From contig CAWEQC010000004.1 in assembly GCA_963811145.1 (NCBI GenBank), positions 527,752 to 591,751 on the forward strand: a stretch of DNA of 64,000 bases, given 5' to 3'. Made by a program: the position numbers and the translations under genes. Under the pieces are notes generated by a model. It was not told the DNA's origin, ran no database searches, and saw nothing but the letters and a program-made list of their open reading frames with translations. Origin of the DNA: an uncultured Chloroflexia bacterium. GTDB lineage: Bacteria > Chloroflexota > Limnocylindria > QHBO01. Below, piece after piece: positions 2,890-63,153 of this stretch (position 1 is its first letter; every line of letters begins with the position of its first letter).

Positions 2890-3990
2890 ATGACGAGCAC
2901 CCTCCCAACCACGCCCCTCAGCCGCGCGGCGACGCTGCCGTCGCGTTACTACGTGGATGCCGCGATCCTCGCGGCCGAGAAGGACCGCATCTTCGGGCGA
3001 ACCTGGCAGCTGGTCGCACGGACCGATGAGCTCCAGCGAGTGGGCGACTTCGTTCCCGTCACCGTCCTCGACGAGCCGGTCGTCATCACCCACGGCCTGG
3101 ATGGTCAGCTGAACGCCTTCTACAACGTCTGCCGTCACCGGGCCGGGCAGGTCGCGCTGACCCGCGGCAACCGGAAGTCGCTCCAATGCCGGTATCACGG
3201 CTGGACGTATGGGCTGGACGGCACCCTCCGCGCGTGCCCGGAGATGGAGGAGACCGAGGACTTCGACAAGGCCGATTTCGGCCTGGTGCCGGTCCGGGTC
3301 GAGACCTGGGGGCCGTTCGTGTTCGTCAACCTGGACGCATCGGCGCCTTCGTTGCTGGAGGTGATGGGCGCCATTCCTGGCGAAGTCGCCCGGTCCGGCT
3401 ATGACGTCGACCACATGCGCCTGGTGGAGCGGCGCGAGTACGTCGTCGAGTGCAACTGGAAGGTCTACGTCGACAACTACCTCGAGGGCTACCACCTGCC
3501 GATCGCGCACCCGCAGCTGTTCAAGGAGCTCGATTACGACAGCTATCGCGTGGAGGAGTTCCGCTACTACTCCAAGCAGCACGCGCCCATCCGGGAGCTG
3601 AAGCCGGGTGAGGAGCTTGGTGTTGACCGTCGCTACATGCGTCAGCCCGGCGCCGAGGACTCAGCGCTCTACTACTGGCTGTTCCCGAACACGATGTTCA
3701 ACGTCTACCAGGACAACATGTCGTCGAACGTGATCCTGCCGCTTGGGCCGGATCGGACGCTGACCATCTTCGAGTGGTTCTTCGCCGATCCGGGAACGGC
3801 CGAGGGCTGGGAGTCGATGCAGCAGGCGATCGCCTTCTCCGATGAGATCCAGCAGGAGGACATCGTCATCTGTGAGCAGGTGCAGCGCGGCCTCCGCTCG
3901 CGCGCCTACGACTCCGGCCGGTTCAGCGCCAAGCGCGAGAACGGCGTCTACCACTTCCAGAACCTCGTCCGCGAGTTCCTCGGGGAGTAG
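2890..3990 (+). CDS. Rieske [2Fe-2S] non-haem-iron oxygenase, alpha-subunit type
   Basis: Rieske motif CRHRAG-x16-CRYHGW and mononuclear-iron motif NYLEGYHLPIAHP. Divergent from the ABC operon. Confidence 0.87.
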   Translation: MTSTLPTTPLSRAATLPSRYYVDAAILAAEKDRIFGRTWQLVARTDELQRVGDFVPVTVLDEPVVITHGLDGQLNAFYNVCRHRAGQVALTRGNRKSLQCRYHGWTYGLDGTLRACPEMEETEDFDKADFGLVPVRVETWGPFVFVNLDASAPSLLEVMGAIPGEVARSGYDVDHMRLVERREYVVECNWKVYVDNYLEGYHLPIAHPQLFKELDYDSYRVEEFRYYSKQHAPIRELKPGEELGVDRRYMRQPGAEDSALYYWLFPNTMFNVYQDNMSSNVILPLGPDRTLTIFEWFFADPGTAEGWESMQQAIAFSDEIQQEDIVICEQVQRGLRSRAYDSGRFSAKRENGVYHFQNLVREFLGE

Positions 3991-3997
3991 GTTCCTC

Positions 3998-4264
3998 GTG
4001 ACGTGGGAGGAGGTCCTCGCGCTCGCTCGCCGTTTCGAGGGCCAGAGGCTCGAGACGGTCACCGGCAAGGGCTTCACGGTAGGGATCTACCTGGACTGCC
4101 CATTCTTCACGCCCGAGTCGAGCGGGTACGGCCAGAGCGACGGCCGCAAGGCCGGCGAGCGATTTCTTACGCGATACAACGAGATCGGCAGCCTCCGTCC
4201 CGGCGACTACGCCGACCTCACCCGCAACGCCTCCTATTACGTGGCGCTCGTCGCCCGCGCGTAA
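3998..4264 (+). CDS. hypothetical protein (88 aa)
   Basis: GTG 3998 lies 8 nt after the Rieske stop. Coding-like composition (VTWEEVLALARRFEGQRLETVTGKGF...). No domain recognised. Confidence 0.45.
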   Translation: MTWEEVLALARRFEGQRLETVTGKGFTVGIYLDCPFFTPESSGYGQSDGRKAGERFLTRYNEIGSLRPGDYADLTRNASYYVALVARA

Positions 4265-4277
4265 CCGCCACCCCGAC

Positions 4278-4493
4278 GAACAGTCCAGATTCACATGAGG
4301 CGTGCGTCGTGCCGGCAATGGGCCTCCAGGAGAGGCCGGACTCACGCGTGGTGTGAATCTGGACGCTTTGGAGCCCGCTGGCCGCGCCTGATACGTGCCG
4401 TTGAACGGTCCCATTCACGCCCCGGGTGAATCTGAACCGTCCTGACCCAACCGGGCGCCGTTGTTGGTCACCTGATGTGAATCCGGACGGTTC
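4278..4493. repeat. cluster of six 17-nt GTGAAT boxes (two partial copies of a palindromic intergenic element)
   Basis: Boxes sit at 4278-4294(-), 4329-4345(-, degenerate), 4353-4369(+), 4402-4418(-), 4426-4442(+) and 4477-4493(+). Two box(-)-7nt-box(+) centres are present, including the perfect ATTCAC-N7-GTGAAT at 4413-4431. Confidence 0.85.
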
Positions 4494-4512
4494 GCTGCGA
4501 TACCCTCCACCC

Positions 4513-5367
4513 ATGACCGATGCGCCACCAACCCGCGGCGATGGAAAGCTGACCGTCGCCCTCATCTCCGAGGTGTACTGGGAGCCCGATGGCGCCCAGC
4601 GCCTGAGGGAACGCCTCGCCGAGGCCGCGGATCGAGGGGCGGACCTCGCCGTGCTGCCGGAGCTTCCGCTGAACCGGTGGAGCCCATCGACGAAGGAGCC
4701 ACGGGACGAGGACGCCGAGGGAATGGACGGCGAGCGGACACGGGTGCAGGCCGAGGCGGCGGCCGAGGCGGGCATCGGTCTGGTGGGGGGCATCATCCAC
4801 CGGGAATCCGGCAAGGGACGAAGAACGAGCCGCGCGCTGGTGTTCGATCGGGCGGGCAACCTGAAAGCCACGTACGAGAAGCTGCACCTCCCCGAGGAGG
4901 AGGGCTTCTGGGAGACGAGCCACTACGAGCCGGGCACCGAGGCGCCGAAGCGGATCGACGCGTTCGGCGTGCCGATCGGCGTGCAGCTGTGCTCGGACAA
5001 CAACCGTCCCGAAGGCACGCATCTGCTCGGCGCGCAGGGCGTGGTCGCCATGATCAACCCCCGCGCCAGCGAGGAGCGCGAATACCAGCGATGGAAGATC
5101 GTCTGGCGCGCCAACGCGCTGACGAGCTGCTGCTACATCCTGAGCGTCAACCGGCCGCACCCCGAGAACGGCGTGCTGATCGGCGGGCCGAGCGTCGCCA
5201 TCGATCCGAACGGCAACACGGTGGTCGAGACGACCGACACGCTGGCGCTCGTCACCCTGGACGAGCAGGTCGTCGCCGATGCGCGACGTGACTACCCCGG
5301 CTACCTGCCGGTGCGGGCGCGCCTGTACGCCGATGCGTGGGCGGAGATCGCCGGCCGGGACGGGTAG
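4513..5367 (+). CDS. carbon-nitrogen hydrolase (nitrilase superfamily)
   Basis: Start moved to ATG 4513. Catalytic E-K-C context is present: LPELPL, YEKLHLP, GVQLCSDN. Confidence 0.85.
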   Translation: MTDAPPTRGDGKLTVALISEVYWEPDGAQRLRERLAEAADRGADLAVLPELPLNRWSPSTKEPRDEDAEGMDGERTRVQAEAAAEAGIGLVGGIIHRESGKGRRTSRALVFDRAGNLKATYEKLHLPEEEGFWETSHYEPGTEAPKRIDAFGVPIGVQLCSDNNRPEGTHLLGAQGVVAMINPRASEEREYQRWKIVWRANALTSCCYILSVNRPHPENGVLIGGPSVAIDPNGNTVVETTDTLALVTLDEQVVADARRDYPGYLPVRARLYADAWAEIAGRDG

Positions 5368-17787: not shown

Positions 17788-17874
17788 TGGTGCCGGAGGT
17801 GAGACTTGAACTCACACGAGCTTGCGCTCATCGGTGTTTGAGACCGACGCGTCTGCCGATTCCGCCACTCCGGC
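17788..17874 (-). tRNA. tRNA-Leu(CAA), type II, CCA encoded
   Basis: Minus-strand read: GCCGGAG..GTCGGT-CTCAAAC-ACCGAT..variable arm..GTGAG-TTCAAGT-CTCAC-CTCCGGC-A-CCA. All stems are Watson-Crick. Confidence 0.93.
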
Positions 17875-17901: not shown

Positions 17902-18513
17902 ATGGCCGATGCCCCCGAGCAGCCACCAGCGCATCGCACACAGCCACTTCCGGACGAAGTGGCTGTCATCGCGCGGGCCGCTTCCGGGGACCGGACCGCG
18001 TTCGCCCAGCTCATGGAGCACTACCAGAGCGCCTGCTATGGCCTTGCCTGGCGCCTGCTCCACGATCCGGACCAGGCGGCCGATGCAACCCAGGATGCCT
18101 TCATCCACGCCTACAAGGCCATCGGCGCCTATCGGGGAGGAATCTTTCGCTCGTGGCTGCTGCGGATCACGGCCAATGCAAGCTACGACATCCTGCGGCG
18201 CGCGCAGCGTCGCCCCTCGAGCCCGCTGCCTGACCCCGATGAAGGGGCACCCGAGCTCCCTGACCTCGGCGCCATCAACCCGCATTCCGAGGCGATGAAG
18301 AGCGAGATGTATCGGCACCTGGAGGTGGCACTGCGCCTGCTGCCGCAGGATCAGAGAACCGCGGTCGTGCTGTGCGACGTCTATGGCATGGACTACAACG
18401 AGGTGGCCGCCATGACAAGCTCGGCGCTCGGCACGGTGAAGTCGCGCATCCACCGTGGGCGCCTGCGATTGCGCGAGCTGCTGGCCGAGCATCGGGAACT
18501 GTTCACGGGATGA
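17902..18513 (+). CDS. ECF-type RNA polymerase sigma-70 factor
   Basis: Region 2 (DATQDAFIHAYKAIGAYR...SWLLRITAN) and region 4 (AVVLCDVYGMDYNEVAAMTSSALGTVKSRIHRGR). Confidence 0.9.
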   Translation: MADAPEQPPAHRTQPLPDEVAVIARAASGDRTAFAQLMEHYQSACYGLAWRLLHDPDQAADATQDAFIHAYKAIGAYRGGIFRSWLLRITANASYDILRRAQRRPSSPLPDPDEGAPELPDLGAINPHSEAMKSEMYRHLEVALRLLPQDQRTAVVLCDVYGMDYNEVAAMTSSALGTVKSRIHRGRLRLRELLAEHRELFTG

Positions 18514-18532
18514 GGGCGTCTGGACCGATGGC

Positions 18533-19258
18533 ATGCTGATTCCAAATCACCCCGACGACGAGCGCCTCTCGGCGCTGGCCTCGCGAGACTCCGATGCGAT
18601 CGCCGACGCCACGCTTACGACGCACGTCTCCTCCTGCATCCGATGCACCGAGCTCGTGAACGAGCTCGGTTCACTGCGTCTTGCGCTTGCCGACCTTCCC
18701 GACCTTCAGCCATCGCGGCCGCTCCAGCTCGTCCCGCCCGTCGAGGCGGACCACGCTGTCGATCGATTGGGAGGCTGGGCGCGTCGCTTCTTCGCCCCGG
18801 TCCTCGTGTCGGGTGCCGCGCTCGTGCTTGTCGGTGTCGTCGGCACCGCCGGGCCAGCCCTCAGCGGAATGGCCTCCAGCGCGGGGGGAGCCGCACAGTC
18901 GGCCGCCCAGCAGGAGGTGGCGGCAGCTTCCGAGCCGCCGGCGGCCGGTGAGGCTCCAGCGCCGGACAAGGCCGCGGCTTCAATCGCCGCAGCGGCTCCC
19001 GGCTACGCGGAAGGTGGCGACAGCGCAACCCGCGACAGCGCGACCGCCGAACCCTCGGAATCGATCAAGACCTTCGCCTCGAACGGCGGGCTGGCCGCGG
19101 CCGATGAGCCCGAATCCCCGACGGACGCACAGGACGACGGAGCCACCACGCTCGTCGAGCCGGTGCGCTCGCCCTGGCCGATGGTCCTCTTCGCCGGCGT
19201 GGCGCTGATCGTCGCCGCGTTGCTCATGCGCTGGATCCTCGCCCCTCGGACGAGCTGA
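18533..19258 (+). CDS. anti-sigma factor (zf-HC2-like N-terminus, single TM, Ala/Pro-rich exterior, C-terminal TM)
   Basis: Start moved to ATG 18533. H-x3-C-x2-C (HVSSCIRCTEL) and position directly after the ECF sigma gene. Confidence 0.75.
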   Translation: MLIPNHPDDERLSALASRDSDAIADATLTTHVSSCIRCTELVNELGSLRLALADLPDLQPSRPLQLVPPVEADHAVDRLGGWARRFFAPVLVSGAALVLVGVVGTAGPALSGMASSAGGAAQSAAQQEVAAASEPPAAGEAPAPDKAAASIAAAAPGYAEGGDSATRDSATAEPSESIKTFASNGGLAAADEPESPTDAQDDGATTLVEPVRSPWPMVLFAGVALIVAALLMRWILAPRTS

Positions 19259-19262
19259 GGCT

Positions 19263-19405
19263 GAACCGTCCGGATTCACACGAGGTGGGCATAACGCACC
19301 GCGAAGGGCGGTTGACCCGTCGCTATTCACACCTGGCGTGAATTCGGACCGTTCAAAGGCCGGTTGACGCGCCTAACGCACGCCTCACGTGAATTTGGAC
19401 CATTC
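19263..19405. repeat. complete ~143-nt palindromic GTGAAT-box element
   Basis: Layout is box(-) 19263-19279, 34 nt, box(-) 19314-19330, 7 nt, box(+) 19338-19354, 34 nt, box(+) 19389-19405. The centre is the perfect ATTCAC-N7-GTGAAT at 19325-19343. It lies between convergent genes. Confidence 0.85.
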
Positions 19406-19427: not shown

Positions 19428-19946
19428 TCAGAGGCTGAGGCGGCCCACCACGATCGCGCCGACCAGCAGCCCAAGGATCAGCGCCGCCGCCAGCACCGCT
19501 GCCCAGCCCGAGTCGCGGAAGGTTGGCGGTGGCGGGGCCGGGCGGGGTGGACGGCGCGTTCGCGGGGTCGGAATCTCGCCCGGCTGACGAACGGTCCTCG
19601 GCGCGGCGCGGGTCTCGGCCGCCGTCGCCCGCCACGTTGCCCAAGTGCGCGTCGAGGACGGCGACGCCGGGTAGATCGGCGAGCGAGACGGCGCCCAGTG
19701 GCCGATCGAGGGCCCTCCCGACGCCGGGTGGGAGCGGTCGTAATCGGCGCGGCTGGCGGGATTCGCGAGGATCGCCCAGGCCTCGTTGATCGTGCGCATG
19801 CGCTCGGCCTCGTCCATGGCCCCCTCGTGGAGGTCGGGGTGGTGGCGCTTCGCGAGGTGCCGATGAGCGCGCGCAACCTGCAGCGGCGAGGCATCTCGAG
19901 CGACGCCGAGGACGGCGTAGGGATCGAGGGTGCGACGGCCGGTCAT
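19428..19946 (-). CDS. J-domain (DnaJ-like) protein with C-terminal TM anchor
   Basis: Start moved to ATG 19946. DPYAVLGV...HRHLAKRHHPDLH (HPD motif), a Pro/Arg-rich linker, and the TM segment WAAVLAAALILGLLVGAIVV. Confidence 0.8.
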   Translation of the reverse strand: MTGRRTLDPYAVLGVARDASPLQVARAHRHLAKRHHPDLHEGAMDEAERMRTINEAWAILANPASRADYDRSHPASGGPSIGHWAPSRSPIYPASPSSTRTWATWRATAAETRAAPRTVRQPGEIPTPRTRRPPRPAPPPPTFRDSGWAAVLAAALILGLLVGAIVVGRLSL

Positions 19947-34992: not shown

Positions 34993-35033
34993 CATCCGTC
35001 GCGTGCTCGGCCGGGCGTGAATCGGGACGGGTC
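34993..35033. repeat. single GTGAAT-box centre (degenerate box, 7-nt spacer, box)
   Basis: GTGAATCGGGACGGGTC at 35017-35033 is preceded by the 7-nt spacer GCCGGGC. Before that is ATCCGTCGCGTGCTCG, which resembles the (-) box GACCCGTCGCTATTCAC of locus 19314-19330. Confidence 0.55.
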
Positions 35034-35040
35034 GCCGCGA

Positions 35041-59945: not shown

Positions 59946-60032
59946 GCCGAGGTGGCGGAATAGGCAGACGCGCTAGGTTCAGGACCTAGTGACCGCAAGG
60001 TCGTGTGGGTTCAAGTCCCTCCCTCGGTACCA
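59946..60032 (+). tRNA. tRNA-Leu(CAG), type II, CCA encoded
   Basis: Anticodon arm CTAGG-TTCAGGA-CCTAG, long variable arm, T-loop TTCAAGT. It has a G1-U72 wobble and one U-U mismatch in the T-stem (GTGGG/CCCTC). Confidence 0.8.
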
Positions 60033-60052
60033 CCCCGATCTGGTGGTTCTGG

Positions 60053-60137
60053 GCCCAGGTGGCGGAATTGGTATACGCGTACGTTTGAGGGGCGTATGAG
60101 GCAACTCATCCGGGTTCAAGTCCCGGCCTGGGCACCA
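60053..60137 (+). tRNA. tRNA-Leu(GAG), type II, CCA encoded
   Basis: Acceptor stem GCCCAGG/CCTGGGC, anticodon loop TTGAGGG, T-arm CCGGG-TTCAAGT-CCCGG. Confidence 0.92.
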
Positions 60138-60203
60138 CTTCAGTCAAGACCGATGCGCCGCTCGCCACACAATTGCGAGCGGCGTTTCGTTGCTCAGCGT
60201 GCG

Positions 60204-60337
60204 TGACCCGTGGGGCGGGTCAACGCGCGGAGGAGCGGCGCAGAACCCAGAGCTCCGACGCGATCTGACCCGTAACTGCGGGTGAAACGCCGACGAGCGC
60301 GAGCTCCTTCCACCATTGACCCGTGGGGCGGGTCAAC
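60204..60337. repeat. three hairpin repeats in the tRNA spacer (two perfect 21-mers plus one degenerate copy)
   Basis: TGACCCGTGGGGCGGGTCAAC occurs at 60204-60224 and 60317-60337. A degenerate copy TGACCCGTAACTGCGGGTGAAAC starts at about 60265. Each contains the 7-bp inverted repeat TGACCCG/CGGGTCA. Confidence 0.8.
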
Positions 60338-60362
60338 CGATGCATCGGCTAGGATGTTCGCC

Positions 60363-60439
<77 letters not shown>

Positions 60440-60490
60440 ACCTGCCTGCTAGCATCTGCCCGTCCAACCCCGAGCGCGAGGAGCATCCCA

Positions 60491-61069
60491 ATGCCAGTGT
60501 GGCTGATCATTCTGCTGATCGCGATCGCGGTCATCGTCCTCTTCCTGGTCTTCACGTACAACGGCCTGGTCCGGCTTCGGAACATGGTCGACGAGGCGTG
60601 GAACCAGATCAGCGTGCAGCTCAAGCGCCGGCACGACCTGATCCCGAACCTCGTCAACGCGGTGAAGGGCTACATGGACTTCGAGCAGGAGACCCTCACC
60701 AAGGTCATCGAAGCCCGATCCGCCGCGGTCAACGCGCAGCAGGGCGGGCCCGGCAACGCCGCACAGGCAGCCCAGGCAGAGAACTTCCTGACCGGCGCCC
60801 TCCGCCAGCTGTTCGCGCTGGTCGAGAACTACCCGGACCTGAAGGCCAACGAGAACGTCATGCAGCTCCAGGAGGAGCTGACGACGACCGAGAACCAGAT
60901 CGGCTTCAGCCGCCAGCACTACAACAGCACCGTTCGCGAGTTCAACACGAGCATCCAGACCTTCCCGAACGTGCTCATCGCCGGCATGTTCGGCTTCCGC
61001 GAACGCGACTACTTCCAGATTGCCGAGGCCGATGCCGCGGTGCCCGAGGTGAACCTGCGCTCGGCGTAG
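60491..61069 (+). CDS. lemA: LemA family membrane protein
   Basis: N-terminal TM followed by YNGLVRLRNMVDEAWNQISVQLKRRHDLIPNLV. Confidence 0.92.
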   Translation: MPVWLIILLIAIAVIVLFLVFTYNGLVRLRNMVDEAWNQISVQLKRRHDLIPNLVNAVKGYMDFEQETLTKVIEARSAAVNAQQGGPGNAAQAAQAENFLTGALRQLFALVENYPDLKANENVMQLQEELTTTENQIGFSRQHYNSTVREFNTSIQTFPNVLIAGMFGFRERDYFQIAEADAAVPEVNLRSA

Positions 61070-61073
61070 GGCC

Positions 61074-62057
61074 ATGAGCGCCGAGGCGCGCCCGGCGCCG
61101 ACCACGTTCTACCGCGAGATCGCCCGGAACCGGCGACGCAGCTGGTTCCTGGTGGTGATCGTGGTCATCGTGCTTGGCGTGCTCGGCGGCGCGATCGGAT
61201 ACGCCACCGGGCTGGGATGGGGCGGCGTCGTGCTCGCCGTGATCGTGGCGAGCGTCATGTCGGTCGGCTCCTACTACGCCGGCGACCAGCTGGTGATGGC
61301 GACGAGCGGCGCCCGCGAGATCGACCTCGGCAAGCCGCCGGAGCAGTACCAGCAGCTGATCAACATCGTCGAGGAGATGCGCCTGGCGGGCGGCCTGCCG
61401 CGGCCGCGCGTCTGGGTGATCGATGACACGGCGCCCAACGCGTTTGCCACGGGACGCGATCCGGAGCACGCCAGCGTGGCGGTGACGACCGGCCTGCTTC
61501 AGAAGCTCGATCGCGAGGAGCTCCAGGGCGTCATCGGTCACGAGCTGAGCCACGTCGGCAACCTCGACATCAGGTTCACCTTGCTGGTGGGCGTGCTCGT
61601 CGGCAGCATCGCGCTGCTGGCCGACTGGTTCCTGCGGTTCACCTTCTGGGGCGGTGGCCGCAGAAGCAGCAGCGACTCGGACCGCGGCGGGGGTGGGGGA
61701 GCGATGGCCCTCATCTTCGTCCTCGCCCTGGTCCTGGCCGTCGTGGCACCGCTCATCGGCCGGCTCGTGCAGGCCGCCGTGAGCCGCAGCCGCGAGTCAT
61801 TGGCCGATGCGACCGCCGTCGACCTCACCCGCAACCCGGTCGGACTGGCGCGCGCGCTGCGCAAGATCAGCGACGATCCGGAGGTGCTGGAGGTGGCAAA
61901 CCGAGCGACGCAGCATCTCTACATCGTCAACCCGATCAAGAGCTTCGAGGAGCGCGCGAAGTCGCTCTGGGACACCCATCCACCGATCGGCGAGCGCATC
62001 CGGGCACTGGAGGCGATCGCCGGACGGATGGGCTTCACGGGCCAGCAGCCGGGCTAG
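61074..62057 (+). CDS. htpX: M48-family zinc metalloprotease (HtpX-like)
   Basis: TM segments flank the zinc motif VIGHELSHVGNLD. Pairing with LemA is a common arrangement. Confidence 0.88.
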   Translation: MSAEARPAPTTFYREIARNRRRSWFLVVIVVIVLGVLGGAIGYATGLGWGGVVLAVIVASVMSVGSYYAGDQLVMATSGAREIDLGKPPEQYQQLINIVEEMRLAGGLPRPRVWVIDDTAPNAFATGRDPEHASVAVTTGLLQKLDREELQGVIGHELSHVGNLDIRFTLLVGVLVGSIALLADWFLRFTFWGGGRRSSSDSDRGGGGGAMALIFVLALVLAVVAPLIGRLVQAAVSRSRESLADATAVDLTRNPVGLARALRKISDDPEVLEVANRATQHLYIVNPIKSFEERAKSLWDTHPPIGERIRALEAIAGRMGFTGQQPG

Positions 62058-62067
62058 GCTCGGACCG

Positions 62068-62550
62068 ATGGAGGTCGAGATCCTGGCCGCCGATGCCGTG
62101 CCCGGACCTGATCTCGACGCGTTCCTCCGCTCCGCCTGGGGCTCCGAGGTGGTCGTTGCGCACGGCGAGCGCATCATCCTTTCCGAGCTGCCGGGCCTGG
62201 CGGCGGTGTCGGCGGGACGGATCGTCGGTCACGTCTCGTACCGGATGGTGGACGGCGCCTGCGAAGTCACGTCGATCGCCGCCGATCCGCCTCGAACCGG
62301 CATCGGGTCGCAGCTGATGGATCGCGTCATGGCCGAGGCTCGCGGGGCCGGCTGCCGCAGCGTCCGGCTCACGACGACGAACGACAACCTCGATGCCCTT
62401 CGCTTCTACCAGCGTCGTGGCTTTCGGCTGGTGGCCGTGCGACCGGGTGCCGTCGACGATGCCCGCCGGGACCTCAAGCCGGAGATCCCGAAGGTCGGGT
62501 CCTTCGGAATCCCGATGCGCGATGAGCTGGACCTCGAACTCGAGCTGTAG
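62068..62550 (+). CDS. GNAT-family N-acetyltransferase
   Basis: Start moved to ATG 62068. Acetyl-CoA motif RTGIGSQLMDRVMAEARGAG...LRFYQRRGF. Confidence 0.85.
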   Translation: MEVEILAADAVPGPDLDAFLRSAWGSEVVVAHGERIILSELPGLAAVSAGRIVGHVSYRMVDGACEVTSIAADPPRTGIGSQLMDRVMAEARGAGCRSVRLTTTNDNLDALRFYQRRGFRLVAVRPGAVDDARRDLKPEIPKVGSFGIPMRDELDLELEL

Positions 62551-62750
62551 CTCGGACTGATGCGGCTCGCGGCCGGCGTGTGCGTTCACGGACGACGCGA
62601 AGGCAGTTCGTGCCGCGATGACCTGAATTTGCCGGAAGCATCCCGACAACCTCGTGCAAAGTTGCGGCGCGGCGGGACGCATCGGTATCCTTGCGACCGC
62701 CTGATCGAGGCAGTGGGGCAGGAGCTGAGGAGGCCTCAGCGACGATCGGC

Positions 62751-62826
62751 GCCGAGGTAGCTCAGTCGGTAGAGCACCGCCCTGAAGAGGCGGGTGTCGT
62801 CAGTTCGATTCTGACCCTCGGCACCA
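62751..62826 (+). tRNA. tRNA-Phe(GAA), CCA encoded
   Basis: Acceptor stem GCCGAGG/CCTCGGC and anticodon arm CCGCC-CTGAAGA-GGCGG. Confidence 0.93.
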
Positions 62827-62856
62827 GCACCGCGGTATCATCGGGCGCACAAGCGG

Positions 62857-62932
62857 GCGGAAGTGGCTCAGTTGGTAGAGCATCACCTTGCCAAGGTGAG
62901 GGTCGCGGGTTCGAGTCCCGTCTTCCGCTCCA
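62857..62932 (+). tRNA. tRNA-Gly(GCC), CCA encoded
   Basis: Acceptor stem GCGGAAG/CTTCCGC and anticodon arm TCACC-TTGCCAA-GGTGA. Confidence 0.93.
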
Positions 62933-62988
62933 TTTTCATGTCCGGCTGGTTGCAATCGGGGTTGACCTGCTAGCGTGAGACGAGGCGT

Positions 62989-63062
62989 TGCCCCGTCGTC
63001 TAGTGGTAGGACAGCGGACTTTGGATCCGTGAACCGAGGTTCGAATCCTCGCGGGGCAGCCA
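62989..63062 (+). tRNA. tRNA-Gln(TTG), CCA encoded
   Basis: Acceptor stem TGCCCCG/CGGGGCA (U1-A72), anticodon arm GCGGA-CTTTGGA-TCCGT, 4-nt variable loop. Confidence 0.9.
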
Positions 63063-63078
63063 GCCGATCGATTCGCGT

Positions 63079-63153
63079 GGCGACGTGCCCGAGTGGTCCA
63101 GGGAGCGGTCTGCAAAACCGCGTACACGGGTTCGATTCCCGTCGTCGCCTCCA
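63079..63153 (+). tRNA. tRNA-Cys(GCA), CCA encoded
   Basis: Acceptor stem GGCGACG/CGTCGCC and anticodon arm GCGGT-CTGCAAA-ACCGC. Confidence 0.9.

Follow-up and report, generated by a model that had tools for sequence, protein, structure and literature searches.

What occupies the interval between two convergent genes at positions 19263 to 19405 of the window (the whole 64-kb stretch of DNA analysed here): a mobile repeat, a structured RNA, or an array of protein-binding sites? The location itself, as described in the first-pass annotation, is correct. The upstream gene (18455 to 19258, + strand, no Pfam match), which is in synteny in L197 and L198, has its stop codon 4 nt before the element, and the downstream gene (19428 to 19946, - strand, with a DnaJ domain) has its stop codon 22 nt past it. 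An ECF sigma-factor gene (17902 to 18513) precedes the upstream gene, and polA lies on the + strand beyond the DnaJ-domain gene. Relatives of PolA place the window in Candidatus Limnocylindria/Limnocylindrales, and the sequencing runs that contain the locus are exclusively soil and rhizosphere metagenomes. A tRNA gene is found immediately upstream of the ECF sigma gene (17791 to 17874, - strand), and seven + strand tRNA genes are clustered at 59946 to 63150 (59946 to 60436 and 62751 to 63150).

The element is a complete four-box palindromic repeat of 143 bp, which scores 99.5 bits (E 1e-29, model positions 3 to 148) with R1, a family model built on sequence only. When the coordinates were re-read, the four boxes were found where they had first been placed, in the order (-)51(-)24(+)51(+), with spacers of 34, 7 and 34 nt. 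Box 1 (outer left, 19263 to 19279, - strand) is GTGAATCCGGACGGTTC when read on the minus strand and GAACCGTCCGGATTCAC in the element reading; it is identical in sequence to the box at 4477 to 4493, as had been noticed. The left spacer (34 nt, 19280 to 19313) starts with an extension of box 1 of about 15 nt, which is of the A type defined below and diverged here (ACGAGGTGGGCATAA). Box 2 (inner left, 19314 to 19330, - strand) is degenerate: it reads GTGAATAGCGACGGGTC, or GACCCGTCGCTATTCAC in the element reading, and was aligned with box 2 of 36 other copies. The 7-nt centre, ACCTGGC (19331 to 19337), forms with the adjoining hexamers an operator-like inverted repeat, TTCAC-N7-GTGAA. Box 3 (inner right, 19338 to 19354, + strand; GTGAATTCGGACCGTTC) has no mismatch to the box pattern. 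The right spacer (34 nt, 19355 to 19388) ends in an a-type extension, CCTAACGCACGCCTCAC, with one mismatch to the a-type consensus, and box 4 (outer right, 19389 to 19405, + strand) is GTGAATTTGGACCATTC.

Some details of the first description had to be amended. The 17-nt consensus proposed for all four boxes fits box 3 exactly, but box 2 departs from it at 5 positions and is missed when at most 3 mismatches are allowed. A unit of 17 nt is also too short, since the outer boxes carry a conserved inner extension of about 15 nt as well as a terminal C/G; in the family consensus, GTGAAT is directly preceded by an extension ending in either TAACGCACGCCTCAT or TAATGGTTGCCTGGT. The centre, described as a perfect palindrome, is complementary in its hexamers ATTCAC/GTGAAT and not in the ACCTGGC between them. 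The two spacers do match each other at 19 of 34 positions in reverse complement, and the sub-motifs TAACGCAC and GGTTGAC both occur in them, but in direct orientation in the two spacers and not inverted. Overall, 92 of the 143 positions of the element are self-complementary. The ORFs that cross it are artefacts, with 'RPDSH' in their translation. When up to 3 mismatches were allowed, the box pattern matched 9 times in the 64-kb window, compared to 0.45 matches expected, and none of 100 shuffles reached 9.

The search for other copies was extended beyond the window. A scan of genome contigs with a single box was unspecific, yielding 119 loci that were nearly all chance single matches; the real elements among them, with the same four-box layout, were confined to L090 (a Candidatus Limnocylindria MAG) and L053 (a Chloroflexota MAG). 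A stricter pattern, in which two boxes are 51 nt apart, recovered 77 loci in metagenome contigs, about 66 of which have a G+C content of 63 to 72%. The same pattern had no match in viral contigs, so nothing links the family to phages. Three of the loci, L158:1855-2221, L186:2113-2337 and L176:1139-1206 (low GC), turned out to be unrelated tandem repeats with periods of 50 to 52 nt or 17 nt, and do not belong to the family. Complete (-)51(-)24(+)51(+) copies numbered 45, among high-GC soil metagenome contigs, the MAG loci (L090) and the window. The possibility, left open by the first-pass annotation, that the boxes occur at the loci of this window only can thus be discarded: copies occur elsewhere, with a mobility signal (see below) and no match to a known family.

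The consensus of the family consists of CGAACCGTCCRGATTCAC, a spacer opening with ATGAGGCGTGCGTTA, then GAAGCGTCCNGATTCAC, 7 nt, GTGAATCNGGACGCTYC, a spacer ending with TAACGCACGCCTSRT, and finally GTGAATCCGGACGGTTCG. Its recognition module has the core GTGAAT-NN-GGACSGTTC, repeated with a period of 50 to 51 bp; there are two modules per arm, about 51 bp apart, and three in a sub-family. The 15 nt adjoining the outer box exist in two forms, A (ATGAGGCGTGCGTTA) and B (ACCAGGCAACCATTA), and the two arms of a copy combine as A/a (20 copies), A/b (13) or B/a (11), with no B/b. Half copies and deleted copies also occur. In the sub-family (L144:3311-3561, L125:911-1112, L159:145-346 and L185:163-314), the arms consist of 2 to 3 modules with a 50-nt period, each of the form GGTCAC-N5-GTGAATCCGGACGGYTCG, and are about 68 nt apart instead of 7.

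Single-linkage clustering of whole loci being too coarse, elements were masked and flanks only were clustered. The 74 sites fell into at least 36 groups with unrelated flanks, which shows that the family is dispersed. All sites are intergenic, none lying within a long ORF of high GC3, and the element usually starts 15 to 45 nt past a stop codon. At 33 sites where the orientation of the neighbours could be assigned with a rough gene caller, these were in tandem in 21 cases, convergent in 9 and divergent in 3. The observed density is about one copy per 15 to 30 kb. At two loci, L053:5745-5790 and L137:1125-1170, a strong promoter of the sigma-70 type (TTGACA...TATACT), accompanied by palindromic operator-like sequences, closely follows an element on its downstream side; the elements stand outside these promoters.

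If the element is mobile, one would expect to find relatives in which it is missing from the same place. The order of genes at the polA locus (ECF sigma, gene without Pfam match, spacer, DnaJ, polA) made this comparison possible. The element is present in the spacer in the window, in L197 (PolA 94% identical), L129, L148 and L168, and rearranged and degenerate in L198 (PolA 90%). It is absent from L199 (PolA 87%), which has a different repeat there, from L200, where the sequence is different, and from L203, a more distant relative. In L203, the spacer is only 20 nt long, TGA-CGGCC^GCGTCCGGCGAGGGG-CTA, and retains the right flank of the window (GCGTCCGGCG), where the window reads TGA-GGCT, the 143 nt, and GCGTCCGGCGCGACC. 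Comparison of the two indicates that the inserted unit is exactly the 143-bp four-box element, and reveals no evident duplication of the target. A second case was found in L123, which is syntenic with positions 2890 to 4500 of the window: an element separates a Rieske gene from a small gene, and these are 7 nt apart in the window. The element is inserted DNA. Soil-metagenome contigs aligned on the 19263 locus were fragmentary and provided no clean empty site; one of them, of 272 nt, starts inside the palindrome and carries the right half from a strain that differs at 31 positions.

These observations bear out the initial assignment to REP/MITE-like elements in its general sense, that of dispersed intergenic repeats with presence/absence polymorphism at orthologous sites. 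The absence of a described family likewise holds, as Rfam gave no match and literature searches brought up no description of repeats in Limnocylindria. We conclude that the element belongs to a previously undescribed, lineage-specific, non-coding family of dispersed four-module palindromic repeats of Candidatus Limnocylindria.

Is it then an ordinary MITE, that is, a deletion derivative of a DDE-type insertion sequence with several sub-terminal transposase-binding sites, mobilised in trans by an unseen transposase? Terminal inverted repeats (17 to 32 nt), a small size (143 bp), the lack of any ORF, polymorphic orthologous sites, and truncated and half copies are all as in MITEs, and the arms with 2 to 3 direct modules recall the multi-site ends of Tn7, Mu and IS21. 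A target-site duplication, however, was not found at any offset for lengths of 2 to 9 nt, beyond an ambiguous palindromic CG; this CG is shared by the copies and indistinguishable from an extended terminal repeat. Among 38 dereplicated copies, no direct repeat of 3 to 9 nt at the boundaries recurred in more than 4. No contig was found that has a transposase gene between such arms, nor did about 0.6 Mb of loci, where contigs are short and break at repeats, contain an autonomous, transposase-encoding element with such ends. A target motif resembling the box core (CGTCC/GGACG) was also sought in the flanks and rejected, with 12 occurrences for 9 expected. The two flanks of one copy share a direct repeat of about 20 nt (CGACTGGTC.CGGT..CCTTG; L134:383-412 and 556-585), which is absent at other copies. 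As to the different repeat in the polA spacer of L199 (L199:8940-9440), it consists of two direct copies of about 200 nt, each opening with the last 30 nt or so of the upstream gene (TGGATCCTGGAGCC.CGCGCCGG.TGA) and containing the inverted motifs CGATCTATCGG and CCGATAGATCGG; it may represent a further small mobile element by which the target was duplicated.

A second possibility is that of a bidirectional terminator or a long mRNA-stabilising hairpin at convergent 3' ends, selected at the RNA level; an RNA-level role has been proposed for ERIC and REP elements, and the first-pass annotation had mentioned a long-hairpin terminator or a structured RNA. Long hairpins are indeed predicted for both strands (-82.5 and -84.3 kcal/mol, z -4.35 and -4.13), and the position of copies, 15 to 45 nt past stop codons and rarely between divergent genes, would suit such a role. 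If pairing were selected, the two arms of a given copy should match each other better than arms taken from different copies. We examined the full palindrome (69 pairs) in 37 non-redundant copies, shuffling the 3' partners among copies. Within copies, 69.3% of cells were paired, slightly less than in the shuffled sets (70.9 +/- 0.5%; 499 of 500 shuffles were at least as high), and the covariation score was 0.151, compared to 0.171 in shuffles. There is thus no compensatory covariation: the complementarity of the arms only reflects the conservation of each towards one common consensus, and the predicted hairpins are a by-product of inverted arms. Among the alignment columns, those of the GTGAAT/ATTCAC and GGAC/GTCC blocks are invariant. 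Conservation therefore concerns sequence motifs and not pairing, a pattern suggestive of DNA sites recognised by a protein rather than of a selected RNA fold.

Other evidence points in the same direction. No T-run or Rho-independent terminator was found on either strand between 18900 and 19800, and Rfam returned nothing but tRNAs at the gathering threshold, and two sub-threshold chance matches at E<=10. Relative to incoming transcription, the hybrid A/b arms are oriented without bias (6 versus 4, counted by hand). The orthologous copies of the polA locus, in the window and L197, are 66% identical, to be compared with 72% at third codon positions in polA and 62% in dnaJ; outside the box cores, the copy drifts about neutrally. 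Finally, as seen above, the same gene pair does without the element in L199, L200 and L203. The hairpin or terminator reading, which accounts for the position of the copies, is therefore improbable, but hairpins could have incidental effects on transcripts. No promoter consensus is present at the locus; TTGAC in the spacers was considered as a promoter element and discarded, as it belongs to no consensus promoter and its positions are not conserved in the family. No RNA sequencing run was found to contain the region.

Which protein might recognise the modules? In L123, the ORF with an element on either side codes for a protein with an N-terminal XRE-type HTH and a C-terminal PD-(D/E)xK domain. 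Pfam recognises HTH_3 in this protein, with weak matches to MmcB-like, YhcG_C and HSDR_N_2. In Foldseek searches with its AlphaFold2 model (mean pLDDT 85.6), the N-terminal domain resembled HipB and the C-proteins of restriction-modification systems, and the C-terminal domain the restriction-like endonuclease of the R2 retrotransposon (top match), Can2, BstEII and EndoMS. Residues E101, D114, E129 and K131 are invariant in 50 homologues. A search with the protein ending at '...GLLWF' yielded 840 homologues (E <= 1e-5), of which the best 120 were mostly called at about 243 aa. The additional 26 C-terminal residues or so, ANRPDSH..T..RRGQRAPKRPDSH ('NRPDSH...KRPDSH'), which the query did not include, are encoded by box 1, the left spacer and box 2, and the reading frame closes at the TGA within the GTGAAT of box 3. 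This element-encoded tail is conserved in at least 90% of the 50 homologues and predicted to be disordered (AlphaFold2 pLDDT below 50); it could be genuinely coding.

The nuclease gene is present once per locus, in the syntenic order CN-hydrolase, HTH-nuclease, (small gene), Rieske. In all lineages examined (L123, L131, L143, L193, L200, L203, L205, L206, L208 and L209), the gene has an element or the remnant of one on its downstream side. An upstream element lies 49 to 58 nt before the start codon in L123, L131, L126, L179, L200 and L206, is reduced to partial copies or remnants in L203 and L209, and is absent from L143, L205 and L208. The two flanking copies have the same (B...a) orientation relative to the gene. 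Between lineages, they are 0.60 to 0.79 identical, compared to 0.41 to 0.55 for synonymous positions. Within L200, the two copies (L200:9801-9943 and L200:10654-10789) are 88% identical, which suggests homogenisation by gene conversion or recent re-copying. In lineages at 57 to 58% protein identity, the flanking copies have decayed and the catalytic motif is intact, and a homologue at 47% identity (L141) has no flanking copies. The physical association of the elements with one HTH-nuclease gene is tight and ancient. It concerns a single, vertically inherited syntenic locus, effectively one event, and could be a coincidence.

Under the MITE hypothesis, the place of the nuclease gene would simply be a hot spot of insertion. 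The Rieske/CN-hydrolase region, with up to three copies per 1.5 kb, might be such a place. However, the flanking copies of this gene are complete elements, directly oriented and fixed in position, in lineages whose synonymous sites are saturated. Taking this together with the target-site duplication and the transposase that the loci compared did not show, we regard an ordinary MITE as unlikely, to the same degree as an RNA hairpin.

The XRE-family protein might instead be a regulator or a nucleoid-organising factor, and the elements its multi-site operators, forming a regulon and not mobile DNA. This would explain why sequence is conserved and pairing is not; the TTCAC-N5-7-GTGAA cores resemble operators of HTH dimers, and a copy about 50 nt upstream of the start codon of the XRE-nuclease gene would suit autoregulation. 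On the other hand, most copies lie downstream of genes or between convergent genes, with divergent neighbours at only 3 of 33 sites; the first-pass annotation had judged a transcription-factor operator unlikely from the convergent genes around this copy. Close relatives differ by the presence of the element at the same gene pair, the copy of the window persists after loss of the gene, and invariant catalytic residues would be needless in a pure regulator. An operator array is therefore very doubtful, and the least probable of the readings considered.

The window itself has no homologue of the nuclease gene (tblastn), and the history of its copies may be read from what stands in its place. Model R1 detects in the 64 kb one full copy, two truncated copies and one fragment. 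The locus at 4278 to 4493, first reported as one box, contains six boxes, spaced by 34 and 7 nt as in the full element, which correspond to two truncated copies: the first (4277 to 4398; 62 to 64 bits, model positions 3 to 124) has boxes 1 to 3 and lacks box 4, and the second (4401 to 4495; 43 to 46 bits, model positions 53 to 147) has boxes 2 to 4 and lacks box 1 and the left spacer. The isolated fragment (35010 to 35035, + strand; box GTGAATCGGGACGGGTC) is a weak match of 10.4 bits (E 0.087, model positions 123 to 148) to the end of the right extension and box 4. Similarity among the copies of the window is no higher than their similarity to those of other genomes.

The truncated pair sits between the small gene, which ends at 4264, and a CN-hydrolase gene starting at 4513. 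This is the syntenic nuclease site: in L123, L200, L203, L205, L206 and L208, the nuclease gene is bordered by the CN-hydrolase gene on one side and by the small gene or the Rieske gene on the other. Two abutting truncated elements are the expected leftover of recombination between elements bracketing the nuclease gene, and we read positions 4277 to 4495 as the scar of the HTH-nuclease gene, which once stood between two elements and has been deleted here. The copy of the polA locus, at 19263 to 19405, is therefore most likely an immobile, slowly decaying relic; what remains in the window fits an inactive population. The small gene is itself a recurrent neighbour: its ORF of about 88 to 97 aa, without Pfam match (...GSLRPGDYAD.TRNASYY...), always adjoins the HTH-nuclease or the Rieske gene, on a side that differs among genomes (3989 to 4264 in the window, L123:1508-1780, L200:10821-11114, L205:9678-9944), and it is still found in the window despite the loss of the nuclease gene. 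The CN-hydrolase of the window had no exact match in sequence records.

Altogether, the explanation that we favour, with a probability of about 0.6, is that of a REPIN/MITE-like repeat family, probably served by the XRE-HTH + PD-(D/E)xK nuclease, of which the copy at 19263 to 19405 is most likely a relic. The RNA hairpin or terminator, the conventional MITE and the operator array each fit the data less well than a nuclease-served repeat family. The nuclease would be the protein that recognises the modules: its HTH would bind the putative operator-like TTCAC-N5-7-GTGAA cores, and its catalytic domain might nick or cut the element, leading to copying or gene conversion. The gene would be bracketed by its own substrates, one copy lying about 50 nt ahead of the start codon and the left half of another providing the last 26 codons or so, much as RAYT genes are flanked by REPINs. 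If the element affects the two convergent transcripts at their 3' ends at all, it would do so incidentally. A more ambitious version of this explanation, that the family is a second, independently evolved REPIN-like system in which a vertically inherited XRE-HTH + PD-(D/E)xK nuclease, instead of an HUH tyrosine transposase, recognises and cuts, and thereby propagates or homogenises, the four-module elements, whose populations decay after gene loss as in the window, is put forward as tentative, and we hold it somewhat less probable than not.

How does the family compare with known systems? REPIN-RAYT systems associate doublets of REPs with a REP-associated tyrosine transposase present in a single copy (Bertels & Rainey, PMC3116915, PMC3337134), the REP unit being an imperfect palindrome of 20 to 40 nt (a stem-loop) with a GTAG or CGTC head (PMC3733652). 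In both cases, short non-coding palindromic doublets are extragenic, dispersed and persist within one bacterial lineage; copies of the repeat flank a vertically inherited gene that is present once per locus; repeats persist and decay after loss of that gene; and inverted units can form a longer hairpin, which is predicted on both strands in the present element. The unit here, however, is a non-hairpin module of 17 to 30 nt: the box GTGAATYYGGACSGTTC cannot form a stem-loop, lacks GTAG and has CGTC internally. Elements have four modules, sometimes six, instead of two; the flanked gene encodes HTH_3 and PD-(D/E)xK domains and not an HUH/Y1 transposase, no Y1_Tnp domain being found in it; and the host belongs to an uncultured Chloroflexota class. 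The family is not REP, then, since its unit is not a GTAG- or CGTC-headed stem-loop and the gene that it flanks is not an HUH transposase, but by analogy the element would work most like a REPIN.

Other repeats share part of these features. BIMEs of E. coli, which are mosaics of REPs and are bound by IHF, DNA gyrase or Pol I, are likewise modular, with a short motif arrayed in the two orientations, partly conserved linkers of fixed length, a variable number of modules, and a position after genes; the order here is (-)(-)(+)(+) instead of strictly alternating, and the sequences are unrelated. ERIC/IRU and Correia (CREE) elements are MITE-like imperfect-palindrome repeats of 100 to 170 bp. They are close to the present family (about 143 bp) in size, in forming an imperfect palindrome over the whole element, in their presence/absence among strains, and in their intergenic, likely co-transcribed position. 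They differ from it in that no TA or other target duplication is found here, sub-terminal modules have a 51-bp period, and neither an RNA-level selection signal nor sequence similarity is detected (no Rfam match). Multi-site transposon ends are found in Tn7 (TnsB sites), Mu (L1-L3/R1-R3) and IS21. As there, each of the inverted arms has 2 to 3 direct modules of about 20 to 30 bp, where binding is putative in our case, and PD-(D/E)xK nucleases are known in mobile elements, namely TnsA and the R2 endonuclease, the latter being the top structural match of the candidate nuclease. The 'ends' here, in contrast, abut across 7 nt without cargo, the box has its GTGAAT end turned inwards, and there is no associated DDE transposase and no target duplication.

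So far, cases in which a dedicated, domesticated enzyme serves dispersed short palindromic repeats are known essentially from REPIN-RAYT, mainly in Proteobacteria. If the link with the nuclease is true, the same genomic lifestyle would have arisen with a wholly different enzyme chemistry, that of a restriction-endonuclease fold joined to an HTH, in an abundant, uncultured soil phylum, and it would provide a compact protein with a recognition module of about 17 to 30 bp. A new type of partner enzyme for such repeats is plausible from the sequences compared here.

Even if this link fails, the family is a lineage marker of Limnocylindria and, as read from the scar, mediates at least one gene deletion; it also breaks metagenome assemblies and creates spurious 'RPDSH' ORF extensions. 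The contigs carrying the nuclease gene (P0121-P0240) are nearly all 0.9 to 1.5 kb long, assemblies apparently breaking at the flanking palindromes. Gene callers extend the nuclease ORF by about 26 codons into the element, which results in the 'RPDSH' tail, and in L200 a 7-nt central deletion of the downstream copy removes the stop codon, so that the called protein reaches 287 aa.
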